DNA of 64,000 nucleotides from Candidatus Poribacteria bacterium (GTDB lineage Bacteria > Poribacteria > WGA-4E > PCPOR2b): the NCBI GenBank assembly GCA_965215015.1, contig OZ244042.1, forward strand, positions 5,792,001 to 5,856,000. The letters are read 5' to 3'. The notes beneath the pieces are model-generated. The model was given only the letters and a program-made list of their open reading frames with translations. It was not told the origin of the DNA and did no database searches. Made by a program: the position numbers and the translations under genes. The first letter of the stretch is position 1, and each line of letters begins with the position of its first letter. Positions 1 to 56,230 of the stretch are shown piece after piece.

Positions 1-3000
1 TATGGTGAAGCATTAGCCGACGCAAACTCGTCAGATGTGAAACCTTACGGGATCGACCGACGGGTTCCGTGGGAGACATCTCGCGTCGTGGGTGCCCCCG
101 ATGCCTCTGATGATTTTTCAACCCTAGCACGCGAGCTGGAACGGTTTGTGGAAGCAGGCAAAGTAATCTTCAACGGAAAGGGATCGTGCTACTCCTGCCA
201 CACACTCAATCCATCCGCACCGCCGGGCAGAGGGCCCGATCTCACCGATATTGGGGTGAACGCTGCCACGCGAAAGCCGGGCATGGGAGCGAAGGTGTAT
301 CTCATCGAGTCCCTCTATGACCCAGCGGCATTCCTCGTCCACGGGTACGGTAAGACCATGACGCCGGCATGGAAACCACCAATCAGTCTGTCGAATTTAG
401 AGATTGAAGCTGTCATCGCATTCCTTCAGAGTCAGGGAGGAGAGATAGATCTGAAACCGTTTGAACCGCCGATTGATATACAAACCGTTGCGAAAGAGAT
501 GGAGGCACGTCCACTGATCCATGCCGCAGACGCCGAGCGAGGGATGGAGGTATTCGTCAATGTTGTAAAATGTATCGCATGTCACGATGTTGATGGGATT
601 GAGAAGCCGGAGGGGCAGACCCTTGACGATGGAGTTGAGGTCTTTCCAGGTCCTGATTTAACGGATATTGCCGCATTAAACAGCATCGGTTATATCGAAG
701 AATCCATTCTGAAACCCAACGCCGAGATTGTGCGCGGGTACGGTGTGGCATCCGTCGCAACCGGCGGCACGGTTGTTGAGGGAACACTCATCTCACAAGA
801 TAGTGAAAAAATTGTCCTGCATATCAAAGGGTTGACGGAGTCAACGGAGAGGACGCTCCTTTTGAGCGAGATTGACCCCGAACCCATCGAAGAGTTGGCG
901 GATCTGGCGGGAAAAGGGTATTTTTGGATTCAGGTGACGCCCAACAATTCAGAGCCGATCCGCGGGGATCTCGTCGGAGAGGATGAAGAAACGCTTACGC
1001 TCAAGACTGAAGCCTCTCCGGAAGAAATGCAAACCGTGTCAAAATCAAACCTGAAGACCTATGTAACTGTTATCCCATATAACAGAGAGCCGATTGTCGG
1101 GGCATTAATCTCGGAAAATGAGGAGCAGATCGTTTTAGGGGTTAAGGGCATGGAACGCACCATCGATAAATTCGATATTGATGAAGGCCCAACCTATAGC
1201 CGTGCTTTTGGGAAGCGAATCAACGTAAAATCCCCGATGCCGGATAATTACGCACAACTCTTGGCGGTTGATGAGCATTACGACTTACTGGCATTTTTAT
1301 CAACGCTGACCGGCAAAACGTCAGGCTCAGAATCCGGTCCGACCTTATCACTCCGTCCTAAAGGGATATTTACCAAATTTCCGTTAGATCAACCGGTGTA
1401 TATCGAGCCTGAGCCGGGCACCGACCAACTCTTCGTCATTGAACTAGGGGGCAAGATTCGTCGCTTCAAAGACCATCCGGATACAGAAAACGCCGAATTT
1501 CTACTTGACACAGGGCGCGAAACCTACGGCTTGACATTCCACCCAAACTACGAAGAAAACGGTTATCTCTATGTTGTCAGCAATGGACCGATAGGGGGGA
1601 AAGTCACTGAGACCAAAAATCGTGTTTCGCGCTTTACGGTGGAGCGTCAACCGCCGTATGGCTGCGATCCGAATTCCGAGCTGATTATCTTGGAATGGCT
1701 ATCGAACAACCACAACGGCGGGGACCTCGCGTTCGGTCCCGATGGATACCTCTACATCCCCGCCGGCGACGGTGCTATGGACTCTGATACCAACCTCACC
1801 GGTCTCCCCGGAAGCTACGACAGGGACCCAAAGGGACAAGATCTCAGTAACCTACCAGCGACAATCATGCGCATTGACGTTGACCATCCGGAGGCGGGCC
1901 TACCCTATTCGATCCCAAGCGATAACCCGTTTACCCATATCGAGGGAGCCCGGCCTGAAATTTGGGTCTACGGGATTCGCAACCCGTGGAGAATCACCTT
2001 CGATCGCGAGACGGGGCATCTGTGGGCAGGAAATGTTGGGCAAGATCGGTGGGAGATGATTCACCTCGTGCGCCGTGGGGACAATTATGGTTGGAGCCTT
2101 TACGAAGGTAGTCACCCCTTTTTCCTCAACCGCAAACCGGGGCCCACGCCTATTGTCAAGCCAACAGTCGAACATCCCCACTCCGAAGCCCGTTCAATTA
2201 CCGGGGGCGTTGTCTATTACGGCTCAAAATTCCCCGAATTGCGGGGTGCCTACGTCTACGGCGACTACGCAACGGGAAAAATGTGGGCACTCCGCCACGA
2301 CGGGGAGCAACTTATTTGGCATCGGGAAATCGCCGATACAACGTTACAAATCGTGAGTTTCGGCGTTGATCATAACGACGAGATATTAATCGTAGATCTG
2401 GCACGTGGTATCTACCAATTAGAACGCAAACCCAAATCCACAGAAAAGTTTCCGACCCGTTTGAGTGAAACGGGCATGTTCATATCGGTTAAAAACCATC
2501 AGACTGATCCGGGGCTGATTCCCTACTCAGTCAACGCGCCGCTGTGGGTGGATGGGGCGGATGTAGAACGATTCATCGCATTACCGGATGATTCTCAAAT
2601 TGAGATGTCGGCTGCCGATGGAGTTGGATGGAGTTTCCCGGATGGAACGGCACTGATTCAAACCTTCGCACTCAATCTGGAAGTAGGAAATCCCACTTCC
2701 AAACACTGGATTGAAACACGGTTACTGACCCGACAACAGGGTGAGTGGGGGGGATACTCCTATATCTGGAATGACGAGCAAACCGACGCAATCCTTGTGG
2801 ACGCCGCTGGGATAGACCGTGTCTTCACGATTCAGGATTCAAGTGCCCCTAATGGCAGCCGAGAGCAGTCTTGGCACTATCCCAGTCGGGAGGAGTGCAT
2901 GGCCTGCCACAGCCGCGCCGCCAACTATGTCTTGGGACTCACCACGCTCCAAATGAACAAAGTCCACAATTACAGACCCGTTTCGGACAATCAACTACGA

Positions 3001-51575: not shown

Positions 51576-52775
51576 CTACTCAATAACTTCTGAAACAACG
51601 CCAGCTCCAACGGTGTGCCCGCCTTCACGAATCGCAAACCTCAGCTCCTCTTCCAGAGCGATAGGCTTGGTGAGTTCAACAGTAATTTGGACATTATCTC
51701 CGGGCATTACCATTTCAACACCTTCAGGAAGATGCATTATGCCAGTCACATCCGTTGTACGGAAGTAGAACTGCGGACGATAGTTACTGAAAAATGGCGT
51801 CCAACGCCCACCTTCGTCTTTGTTCAGAATATAGATTTCAGCCGCAAATCTTGTGTGTGGGGTAATACTGCCCGGAGCGGCGAGAACTTGCCCACGCTCA
51901 ACATCATCACGCTCAATACCGCGAAGCAGAACTCCGACATTATCACCCGCACGCCCTTCGTCAAGCAGCTTACGGAACATCTCTACACCGGTTGCAACCG
52001 TGCTGGAGGTGGGGGCCAGTCCAACAATCTCGACGGTGTCGCCGACGTGAACAATGCCGCGTTCGATACGGCCAGTCACAACTGTACCCCGCCCAGTGAT
52101 TGAGAAGATATCTTCCACAGGCATTAGGTAGGGGCGATCAATGTCTCGGACCGGCTCCGGAATCCAATTGTCACATGCCTCCATGAGCTCTAAAATTGAC
52201 TCACACTCCTCAGCATTCGGATTGCCGCCACTTTCCATCGCTTGGAGGGCAGACCCACTAATAACTGGAATGTCATCACCGGGGAACTCGTATTCAGTGA
52301 GTAGCTCTCGAACTTCGAGTTCTACCAATTCTAGGAGCTCCTCATCGTCAACCATGTCTGCCTTATTCAGGTAGACAACGAGGCTTGGCACGTTCACCTG
52401 CCGTGCCAAGAGAACGTGTTCACGAGTTTGGGGCATGGGACCGTCAGCGGCAGAGACAACAAGAATTGCGCCATCCATCTGCGCTGCACCGGTAATCATA
52501 TTTTTGATGTAGTCAGCGTGTCCGGGACAGTCTACGTGAGCGTAGTGTCGATTCTCCGTCTCATACTCAACGTGCGCGGTGTTTATGGTAATCCCACGCT
52601 CTTTTTCCTCAGGAGCTGCATCAATCTCTTCATAAGTTTTTACGTACTCGCTCCCAGAGAGATTTGACAACACCATGGTAATTGCAGCCGTTAATGTGGT
52701 TTTACCATGATCTACGTGTCCAATTGTGCCAACATTGATGTGCGGCTTAGTCCTTTCAAATTTTTCCTTTGCCAT
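51576..52775 (-). CDS. tuf: Elongation factor Tu
   Basis: [27 protein letters not shown]. Confidence 0.99.
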
Positions 52776-52865: not shown

Positions 52866-54959
52866 TTAAACAGAAAATCCTTTCGACGAGATAATTTCTT
52901 GAGCAATGCTCTGGGGAACATAACTATAATGTGCAAATTCCATCGAATAAGTTGCCCGTCCTTGCGTCAGGGAACGGAGCATTTTAACATAACCGAACAT
53001 TTCAGCAAGTGGAACATAGGCTTTAATGACCTGTATTCCGGACTTGGGGTGCATATCTGTCTGGAGAATTTGTGCACGCCGCGCATTTAAATCCCCCATT
53101 ACCTTTCCCAAATAGTCATCCGGAACAATAACTTCAATCTCCATGATTGGTTCAAGCAGTATCGGATCTGCGCGTTTCACCGCGTCTTTGAAGGCAATCC
53201 GAGCAGCGTTTGAAAATGCGATTTCTGAAGAATCAACGGGATGGTAAGAACCATCATACAATCGCACACCGACATCAACTAGTGGATAACCGCCTAAAAT
53301 CCCGGCAGTTATTCCCTCTTCAAGTCCCTTACGAACAGCGGGGATATATTCTTGGGGAATGGTGCCTCCCTTTATTTCATTAACAAATTCAAAACCGGCT
53401 CCCTGTTCGAGTGGGTAAATTTCAATAACCACATGTCCGAATTGACCACGCCCACCGGATTGCCGCACAAAACGCTCGTTGGCGTCTGCGGAACGCTGGA
53501 TAGTCTCACGATAAGCAACTTGAGGTTGACCAATCTCTGCCGAAACCTTAAATTCCCGAACCAAGCGATCTACGATTATCTCTAAATGTAATTCCCCCAT
53601 GCCGGACAGGACTGTTTGTCCTGTTTCTGGATCTTGATGAACCTTAAAAGTTGGGTCTTCTTCAGCCAACTTTGATAGTGCTATGTTCATCTTCTCAATG
53701 TCCGACTTTGTTTGAGGTTCAATAGCAATGGACATCACAGGAGATGGAAAGGCCATTGATTCCAATACAATCGGGGCATTTGGATCGCAAACGGTGTCGC
53801 CGGTCATCGCGGATTTGAAGCCAATGATGGCGGCGATATCACCCGCATAGATGGCTTGACGCTCCTCACGCTTGTTGGCGTGTAGCTGCATCAGCCTCCC
53901 GATCCTTTCAAACTTTCGGCGCGTACTATTGTATACAGTCATTCCTTTAGCCAAAACCCCGGAGTAAACGCGGAGGAATGTCAGCTTGCCAACATGTGGA
54001 TCGGTTGTAATTTTGAAGGCTAGTGCAGAAAAAGGCTCGTCGTCATTTGCTAAACGTGTCCCTTCCTCTTCAGCTTCTGGATTCAAGCCAGTTACCGGTG
54101 GTACATCTATTGGAGAGGGTAGGTAATCAACCACTGCATCTAGTAACGGTTGGACGCCTTTATTCTTAAGGGCTGTGCCGCACAGGACAGGAACCATTTT
54201 TCCGCTTAACGTCGCGCTCCTTAAACCCGCTTTGATTTCTTCCTCGGACAACTCAACCCCATCAATATATTTTACCAAGAGGTCATCATCACACTCGGCA
54301 ATTGCTTCCAACATTTGCTCCCGATATTCCAGAACACTCTCCATCATTTCATCTGGGATATCTGTATCGAACATAATCGATCCGAAACTCGCTTCGTCCC
54401 ATGTCAGTCCTTTCAGAGAAATCAAATCAACAATTCCACTAAATCTCTCGGAGGAGCCAATCGGCAGTTGAATTGGCACCGCTGAAGTCCCAAGCCGCTC
54501 AACCATCATTTCGACCGTTCGAAAGAAGTCCGCACCGGTTCGATCCATTTTATTAATAAGCGCGATACGTGGCACCTGATATTTATCTGCTTGTCTCCAA
54601 ACCGTTTCCGACTGGGGTTCCACGCCGCCAACTGCACAGAAAACAGCAACGGCTCCATCAAGGATTCGCAGCGATCTTTCGACTTCAACCGTAAAATCAA
54701 TATGTCCCGGAGTATCGATAATGTTGATACCATATCCATTCCATTGGCACGTTGTTGCGGCAGCGGTAATAGTAATCCCTCGTTCCTGTTCCTGTGCCAT
54801 CCAATCCATTGTCGTGGTGCCATCGTCAACCTCTCCCATACGATGCACTTTGCCTGTGTAGTACAACATGCGTTCCGTTACAGTTGTCTTGCCCGCATCA
54901 ATATGCGCCATGATGCCGATGTTTCGTGTATGGGTCAATGGAAATCGACGTTGCTCCAT
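52866..54959 (-). CDS. fusA: Elongation factor G (start uncertain: 54959 or 54983)
   Basis: [23 protein letters not shown]. Confidence 0.97.
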
Positions 54960-55045
54960 GGAACGCCGATTTTCAGAGGTCATTTGATTTTGTTTTTTAA
55001 GTCTCATTTTTTCTAAAACCATTCATGATACGGTAAAAAGATAAA

Positions 55046-55195: not shown

Positions 55196-55666
55196 TTACC
55201 AGCGATAGTGTGCAAATGCTCGATTCGCCTCCGCCATGCGATGTTGATCAAGTTTTCTGCGAATTGAAGATCCGTCATTCCTAGCGGCATCTAATAGTTC
55301 GCCCGCCAGCCGCTCTGCCATCGTTTTCTCTCCACGATCTCTTGCAGATTGAATAATCCAACGGAGTGCCAATGTTGTGCGACGTTCCGCTTTAACATCT
55401 ACTGGCACTTGGTAGGTTTGTCCCCCAACACGCCGAGACCGAATTTCAAGAACCGGCTTAACGTTGTTAATTGCTTCGTGGAAAACTGTAAGTCCATCCT
55501 GGTCGGTGCGTTTTTCAACAATGTCTATGCTATTGTATAGAATTGACCGAGCAACACTCTTCTTTCCACAAGCCATTAAGAAGTTTATAAATTTCGCCAC
55601 CAGTTTACTGTTATATTTTGGGTCCGGGAGTACGTCTCGTTTAACAACCTCTGTACGACGTGGCAT
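55196..55666 (-). CDS. rpsG: 30S ribosomal protein S7
   Basis: [28 protein letters not shown]. Confidence 0.98.
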
Positions 55667-55677
55667 ACCTTCCTCCT

Positions 55678-56049
55678 CTAACCAGCACTCTTTGCACCAT
55701 ATTTTGATCTTGCCTGCCGTCGATTCTCAACACCCGCTGTATCTAATGTGCCGCGGACTATGTGGTATCTGACATTGGGCAAATCCTTAACTCTGCCGCC
55801 GCGCACGAGTACAACCGAGTGTTCCAGAAGGTTATGATCTATGCCGGGGATATAGCAGGTGGCTTCTTGACCATTCGTAAAACGGACACGAGCGACCTTG
55901 CGAAGCGCCGAATTCGGCTTCGTGGGAGTTACGGTCCTGACTTGTAAACAGATGCCTCGCCGTTGGGGACAACTTTCCAGGACCGGAGATTTACTTTTCT
56001 TACGTGGTCTTTTACGAGATTTTCTGACTAATTGATTAATTGTTGGCAT
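55678..56049 (-). CDS. rpsL: 30S ribosomal protein S12
   Basis: [26 protein letters not shown]. Confidence 0.98.
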
Positions 56050-56230
56050 ATCTACCTCGGCTGACTAGTAATGTGCAGACAAAAATAAAGCCCCACTATG
56101 GGGGCTCACAAAGTTGTCCGCTGTAACGAAGTAACTGTGAAAAAACACGCCAAAGTGTTTTGGAACTATAAATTCCTCCCCTTTTCCACCTAATTCAAGG
56201 CGAAAATCCAAAGTTAGCGTCAAAAGGCGA

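Follow-up and report, generated by a model that had tools for sequence, protein, structure and literature searches.

Two replacements in the accuracy centre of the bacterial ribosome, threonine for lysine at position 42 and asparagine for glycine at position 91 of ribosomal protein S12 (E. coli numbering), occur together in an uncultured, sponge-associated member of the Poribacteria, and their interest lies less in a double mutant of one genome than in what they show of the whole lineage. We consider it rather probable that the allele is a genuine, inherited one and that the streptomycin pocket and decoding-centre interface of this lineage differ from the bacterial norm. Lys42 and Gly91 are regarded as near-invariant, and what is known of their replacement stems from laboratory mutants, usually with a fitness cost. 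Poribacteria, with a phylum-wide Asn91 and more than half of the species devoid of Lys42, provide a natural data set on tolerance and compensation in the accuracy centre. Target-site variants of S12 are already known as a class; for the poribacterial pattern no earlier report was found, the literature on Poribacteria and streptomycin (subscription journals and supplements lying outside the search) yielding no account of S12 variants in this phylum.

The rpsL gene and the authenticity of its codons

The window, that is the whole stretch of 64,000 nucleotides analysed here, holds a str operon with the gene for uS12 at its head (Table 1). The rpsL product matches the bacterial S12 profile TIGR00981 (NCBIfam, rpsL_bact) with 209.4 bits over residues 1-121 of 124 profile positions, where the curated cut-off is 112.95 bits, and it aligns at an E value of 5.9e-58 with solved uS12 chains, which have K, G and L at positions 42, 91 and 56, respectively. 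A search of the whole 5.94-Mb single-contig genome (98% completeness) returned this one S12 match and no second rpsL copy. Full length, above the cut-off, single copy and leading its operon, the protein is a bacterial uS12. The genes rpsG and fusA served as the flank in trees that leave rpsL out.

Table 1. Features of the str operon in the window and of the 16S rRNA drug pocket (E. coli numbering for residues and 16S positions)
Feature	Position in the window	Strand	State in the window (codons) or in Poribacteria (16S)	State in E. coli	Basis
rpsL, uS12, 123 aa	55678..56049	-			ORF and TIGR00981 match; single copy in genome
rpsL codon 43, residue 42 (TPTKPNSA)	55921..55923	-	Thr (ACG)	Lys	sequence and alignment to solved chains
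rpsL codon 92, residue 91 (KDLPNVRY)	55774..55776	-	Asn (AAT)	Gly	sequence; phylum-wide state
rpsL codons 88-91	55777..55788	-	K87 (AAG), D88, L89, P90 (CCC)		sequence
rpsL codon 57, residue 56 (VRFTNG)	55879..55881	-	Phe (TTT)	Leu	sequence and alignment
rpsG (S7), next str operon gene	55196..55666	-			named from translation and rpsL-rpsG-fusA-tuf order, without family search
fusA (EF-G)	52866..55022	-			named from translation, without family search
tuf (EF-Tu), str operon end	51576..52775	-			named from translation, without family search
16S positions 13/20/915			A/C/G	U/U/A	
16S central pseudoknot, 17-19 with 916-918			UAC/GUA	UCA/UGA	
16S pair 505-526			A-U	G-C	
16S pair 1410-1490			G-C	A-U	

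K42 is the lysine that forms a hydrogen bond with streptomycin and a salt bridge with A913 (PMC2916820). In the window it is replaced by a residue linked to resistance (Thr, from the known set T, N, R and A), which by sequence puts the gene among the classical K42 alleles, and N91 is a substitution at one of the two dependence sites P90 and G91, with P90 itself retained. The loop encoded by codons 88-91 is where the remaining classical sites of resistance and dependence lie; it is unaltered in the window and carries R87 together with A90, or S90, in relatives. A preliminary description of this DNA had singled out the motifs around residues 42, 91 and 56 as departures from the bacterial consensus. 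The first two are confirmed by the sequence, the alignment to solved chains and independent contigs; the phenylalanine of VRFTNG is likewise present and is nothing special, being frequent also in G91-type S12 proteins (K-K-K-F-R-K-P-G-Q, for instance, is the state of 20 among 119 homologues), and it is ordinary variation.

Read support, which the preliminary description had put forward as a check, was sought in Logan contigs from runs of four studies, aligned on positions 55600-56150, and all four carry the Thr and Asn codons of the window, not Lys and Gly. Run X1, possibly the source, shows no difference over 55600-56150; X7 and X8 are likewise free of differences over the parts that they cover (55600-55964 and 55741-56145), and X5 differs once, by a synonymous C>T at 55906 in the third position of codon 48. 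As this evidence consists of contigs and not of raw reads, it demonstrates the presence of the allele and not its frequency. In RNA runs, 0.05-0.07 of the sampled words were present. Assembly, polishing or binning errors could in principle generate odd codons, the more so as the window's genome and its relatives are metagenome-assembled and some bins contain foreign 16S contigs (G069:C232, G125, G136:C47). However, the contigs of four studies bear identical codons, the same ACG codon for T42 recurs in the genomes of four species (G000, the genome of the window, and G002, G003 and G022) and N91 is found in nearly every S12 gene of the phylum; the probability of such an artefact is negligible, and for the window it is already refuted. 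Selection on streptomycin plates in the laboratory is ruled out as an origin, because the lineage is uncultured and both the genome and its relatives are MAGs.

Asparagine 91 is shared by the phylum

A pattern reading position 91 (G-G-x-V-[87]-D-x-[90]-[91]-V-R-Y) matched 163 of 176 phylum genomes, and among the rows listed (13 of the 163 matches being unlisted) a hand count gave N91 in 149 of 150, the exception being G044 with Gly. Family f8 escapes this pattern because Gly replaces Arg93; of the five f8 genes examined, four read Asn at 91 and that of G049 reads Gly, which brings the total to 153 of 155 S12 genes. The S12 of this family (L139-L143) reads GGNVRDLPNVGYH and combines R87 with the glycine in place of the conserved Arg93. 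In a Planctomycetota control, N91 occurred in none of the 131 genomes matched out of 151 sampled, all 131 having G91. Among the proteins with N91, the one label other than Poribacteria belonged to P0064, which bears a Zixibacteria name.

Judged from these counts, N91 is a trait of the phylum and the ancestral state of nearly all of it. The preliminary description had paired G91N with K42T as a double allele; this pairing does not hold, since a state ancestral across nearly the whole phylum is not a second hit beside K42T. Its fixation in all but two of the genes examined in a wild phylum also renders N91 implausible as a dependence allele.

The 16S rRNA drug pocket

The genome has a single 16S gene, located outside the window (G000:C1:4801421-4802978; L131:1501-3058, minus strand), which was aligned to E. 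coli rrsH. Besides the departures given in Table 1, positions 523-525, 527, 530, 912-914, 1408 and 1491-1493 are the same as in E. coli. The triple 13/20/915 and the pseudoknot state are identical in 17 of 17 Poribacteria 16S genes aligned (including G000, G049 and G054). On a wider scale, G915-G916-U917 is found in 110 of 112 rows from 108 phylum genomes and U526 in 114 of 125 rows from 120 genomes, 94 with A505 and 20 with G505 by hand count; five rows have A526 (G021, two copies in G074, G075 and G172) and six have C526, four of these on probably foreign contigs.

Resistance, or weaker binding of the drug, results from C526U and from changes at 13 or 915 taken singly. In the Poribacteria, the partners have changed too and pairing is kept, with C20-G915, A505-U526, 18-917 and 19-916 all complementary, and no pocket change that breaks its pairing, as expected of 16S target-site resistance, was found in the 16S of the window's genome. 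The compensated pairs may leave the geometry of the pocket, and hence drug binding to the RNA, unchanged. Streptomycin contacts C526 and G527 (PMC10525438), and in the Thermus 30S structure U13-U20-A915 form a base triple (PMC3278836).

When T42 genomes were set against K42 relatives, no T42-specific pocket change emerged: G000, G003 and G022 are set apart from the five relatives with K42 by no 16S columns other than 218 and 546, both outside the pocket, and G002, which also has T42, carries the K-type base at both. Co-variation in 16S, as the preliminary description had envisaged it, thus extends to real changes at pocket positions, but these are phylum-wide, pairwise compensated and in no case specific to T42. 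A coupling of N91 with U526 was suggested by the comparison of G049 (G91, G505-C526) with G054 (N91, A505-U526) and is contradicted by G043 (N91, G505-C526).

Several observations on 16S stand apart. A526 lies opposite G505, so that two purines face each other in the 530 pseudoknot as a mismatch, and occurs in genomes with R42 (G021, L244, and G172) and S42 (G074, L245, and G075); the 16S of G021 additionally has U1409-A1491 and A1410-U1490. In some Poribacteria bins, 16S fragments of the consensus type are located on contigs of their own (G069:C232, G125:C282, G125:C339 and G136:C47) and are probably foreign DNA. Positions 13, 18-20 and 915-917 fall within regions targeted by universal primers in wide use, and given these changes amplicon surveys may under-count Poribacteria.

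Residue 42 and its coupled sites

Residue 42 was read with the pattern P-[42]-K-P-N-S-A-x-R-K, which matched 171 of 176 phylum genomes and by hand count returned K in 76, N in 77, R in 12, T in four and S in two. Both substitutions of the preliminary description are real, but K42T is one of five states at a site that is variable in this phylum; T42 is confined to four species among the 171 genomes with the motif. Within genus g13 a script count gave N 33, K 21 and R 10 of 64; family f2 has mostly N, and in f1, the window's own family, there are 23 genomes with K, four with T and two with R. The deep lineages have K42 in 32 of 32 listed (three in f10 and f11, 12 in f5-f9, 11 in f3 and six in f4), as do the Planctomycetota in 144 of 144 S12 rows. 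A change at 42 is no inevitable consequence of N91, since 76 of 171 species keep K42 together with N91.

The arginine state is strictly coupled. All 12 R42 genomes (two in f1, ten in g13) have R87 and A90, and the ten whose residue 85 was read have K85 as well. This haplotype arose at least twice, as the rpsL tree separates the two f1 genes from the alleles of g13. In the flank tree of family f2, residue 42 changes at least nine times and the R haplotype occupies six places, and in the rpsL tree, with the four coupled codons removed, a single R clade is not rejected (AU p 0.076); one R clade is shifted between the two trees, which fits allele exchange. We argue that sites 42, 85, 87 and 90 would act as one epistatic unit, on the grounds that R42, R87 and A90 are strictly coupled and that suppression linking 42 with the 90 loop is already known.

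T42 is natural elsewhere, too, though apparently rare. A scan of one genome each for 185,579 species gave 98 matching stretches, and among the 80 listed at least 34 are T42 S12 genes, three from Poribacteria and 31 from others, mostly CPR/Patescibacteria MAGs; the remaining 46 are unrelated by translation. These figures are minima, since the scan used a fixed motif and did not count the record of the window itself, and since 18 matches are unlisted. Among the matches listed, the T42 genes outside Poribacteria have G91 (29 of 31) or S91 (2 of 31) and never N91 (0 of 31), and the combination of T42 with N91 is found in Poribacteria only; with 29 of 31 carrying G91, T42 evidently does not require N91. 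Many CPR proteins with T42 among the listed matches L033-L112 (for example L046, L057, L075 and L088; Saccharibacteria, Paceibacterota and others) combine G91 with a CPR-type insertion proximal to the N-terminus. G179, a Victivallales MAG, has two S12-like matches, one reading V-R-D-L-P-G and the other, the T42 copy (L099), G-V-K-D-L-P-G, which could represent two copies or a mixed bin.

These distributions bear on the question of whether residue 42 simply drifts. According to such an explanation the constraint has shifted: with N91, U526 and G915 in place the contacts of Lys42 are dispensable, slow-growing symbionts pay little for a restrictive ribosome, position 42 wanders and resistance is a by-product. 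The phylum-wide remodelled background, the five residues tolerated at 42, the regain of K within genus g13, the failure to find an rRNA change specific to T42 and the occurrence of T42 elsewhere mostly in CPR bacteria are all in keeping with it. Drift nevertheless accords poorly with the tight constraint on the remainder of S12 (94-98% identity within the window's genus) and with the retention of K42 in every listed member of the deep families f3, f4, f5-f9, f10 and f11 despite N91, and the invariable company of R42 with R87 and A90, and with K85 wherever it was read, speaks for epistatic selection rather than free drift. We regard neutral drift as somewhat unlikely.

The history of T42

The flank tree was built on 1,474 columns downstream of rpsL. 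In it G022 (T) is sister to the genus, G000 and G003 (both T) lie at its base, and the remaining 18 species make up a crown in which all have K except G002 (T). By its flanks G002 has the K42 species G004 as its sister, with support of 100/99, and an AU test rejects the monophyly of T42 (p 0.00017). The rpsL gene of G002 is itself a mosaic: at the 46 sites that differ between G003 and G004, it is of the G003 type at 16 of 17 within nucleotides 43-147 and at 4 of 29 outside, a clustering whose degree was reached in 0 of 10,000 shuffles. In addition, a decayed T42-type rpsL fragment (codons ~26-59; L151:4270-4383, G002:C1:5300269-5300382) sits out of context, 4.6 kb upstream of the actual rpsL gene, within a 295-nt stretch that is missing from the sister species G004, and shows 10-15 differences from T alleles and 22 from K-crown alleles. 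It is possible that this fragment is the donor or a relic of the recombination that imported T42.

Taken together, the flank tree, the mosaic gene and the upstream fragment point to short-tract recombination having carried T42 into a K42 lineage. Strain mixing during assembly or polishing could mimic recombination, as the G002 mosaic and the scattered R haplotype are MAG consensus sequences. The origin of T42 can be accounted for by one gain and a reversion in the crown, or by two gains, each scheme comprising two changes plus the transfer into G002.

In an alternative explanation drugs drive the variation: streptomycin-like aminoglycosides produced in the sponge consortium, or another ligand of the pocket, would select against Lys42, and fluctuating selection would maintain the K, N, R, T and S alleles while recombination disperses them. 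The non-lysine states N, T and R, as well as R87, are classical resistance alleles (PMC12416847, PMC2916820), changes at 42 are recurrent (at least nine in f2), one K42 species has acquired a T42 tract and some of the runs in which the stretch occurs are labelled sponge metagenome. Yet the aminoglycoside producer or gene cluster is putative only, about half of the species keep K42 and nothing in these data links the state of the allele with host or habitat. Most Planctomycetota sampled, moreover, have R87 with K42 fixed, which indicates that resistance-type residues can be plain wild types of a lineage. We therefore hold drug-driven target-site resistance to be quite unlikely.

Expected effects on drug binding and decoding

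In the reading that we favour, that of an inherited allele in a remodelled ribosome, the S12 loop of Poribacteria, with N91 and usually S or A at 90, stands beside a 16S background of U526 with A505 or G505 and of A/C/G instead of U/U/A at 13/20/915. Within this background Lys42 is no longer fixed, species carrying K, N, R, T or S; R42 travels as the four-residue haplotype R42-K85-R87-A90, S12 alleles would move between species through short-tract recombination, and the T42 form of the window is common to two congeners and a sister genus.

High-level streptomycin resistance is described for K42R, K42A and K42T, of which K42T and K42A are strongly error-restrictive and K42R is not (PMC2916820), and the resistance alleles of E. 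coli include K43N, K43T, K88E, K88R and P91Q (PMC12416847). G91D and changes of P90 lead to streptomycin dependence, with changes of R85 as companions (PMC3082907), and dependent mutants at P90/G91 are likewise described in PMC3884664, where dependence through P90 is suppressed by changes at K42. These papers agree with the preliminary description, both in calling K42T a classic resistant and hyperaccurate allele (PMC2916820) and in naming P90 and G91 as dependence sites (PMC3082907, PMC3884664).

By extension from E. coli, Thermus and mycobacteria, Thr42 would be without the hydrogen bonds of Lys42 to streptomycin and without its salt bridge to A913 in helix 27, and with these contacts lost the ribosome is expected to bind the drug poorly. 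T42 alone would move decoding towards the slow, error-restrictive side, but its effect and that of the N91 loop may balance out, since changes at K42 suppress dependence mutations of the P90 loop. By homology, the ribosome of the window is quite likely to be insensitive to streptomycin. Whether its fidelity is altered is a more tentative matter, for which we would put the chances a little below even, given a background that differs at 91, 526, 13 and 915. The intrinsic resistance and the re-tuned decoding centre proposed in the preliminary description are thus extrapolations from other species. As to the driving force, a compromise between the accuracy and the speed of decoding may be at work, beside antibiotics or drift.

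In a profile search no protein of the genome reaches the RimO cut-off; the two radical-SAM methylthiotransferases found score as MiaB (474 bits) and MtaB (452 bits; G000:C1:3243170-3244453 and 4739626-4740810; L155, L156), and RsmG is present (154 bits). As RimO was not found, the methylthio modification of S12 D88 may be absent.

A more far-reaching, and in our estimation improbable, proposition is that the pocket haplotypes K-K-P/S, N-K-S, R-K85-R-A and T-K-P, set on N91/U526/G915, pass between species through short-tract recombination under fluctuating selection by a decoding-centre ligand of the sponge consortium, and that the remodelled background renders resistance alleles nearly cost-free; if true, this would constitute a natural experiment on epistasis in the accuracy centre of the ribosome at the scale of a phylum. 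Resistome surveys that flag rpsL variants at K42 and K87 as acquired resistance should in any case be read with caution, and if the ribosomes are indeed insensitive to streptomycin, the drug could be of practical help in the enrichment or cultivation of Poribacteria.

Comparison with known systems

A parallel at the level of a phylum is found in Planctomycetota, where the K87R state (K88R), likewise a classical resistance residue, is the normal one. In the sample (G176-G330) R87 is usual, with Lys in ~8 of 131 and Pro or His in ~9, and both K42 (144 of 144) and G91 (131 of 131) are fixed, in contrast to the variable residue 42 and the N91 of Poribacteria. Planctomycetes are known for their tolerance of aminoglycosides; our search found no publication that ties this tolerance to rpsL. 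The S12 proteins of CPR/Patescibacteria and scattered MAGs share with the window a natural T42 in uncultured bacteria and differ in having G91 or S91 where the window has N91.

Resistance mutations of the 16S 530 loop and the 915 region (523-526, 912-915 and 13) include sites that are changed here as well, with U for C at 526 and with 13 and 915 altered. Poribacteria differ in that the pairs are kept, the partners A505, C20, 18-917 and 19-916 having changed too.

The streptomycin-dependent alleles (G91D and P90R/L in E. coli, P90L in Thermus) lie in the same loop and include position 91, where asparagine is shaped like aspartate. Their ancillary changes at R85 (PMC3082907) parallel the K85 that accompanies R87 and A90 in Poribacteria, and the K42 suppressors of P90 dependence (PMC3884664) offer a precedent for the coupling between 42 and the loop. 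Poribacteria nonetheless have N and not D at 91, combined with K42 in 76 of 171 species, and since N91 is fixed in a phylum of free-living and symbiotic bacteria, drug dependence in nature is not to be expected.

The laboratory rpsL mutation K42T (K43T if the numbering begins with the start codon), known in E. coli, Salmonella and mycobacteria, is the same replacement, brought about by one A-to-C change from AAG to ACG. It combines high-level resistance with strong error restriction (PMC2916820, PMC12416847), a phenotype that follows from the loss of the drug contact and of the A913 salt bridge. The poribacterial T42, in contrast, is the wild type of uncultured species, apparently inherited and exchanged between them, and it is set in a background of N91, U526 and A13/C20/G915.
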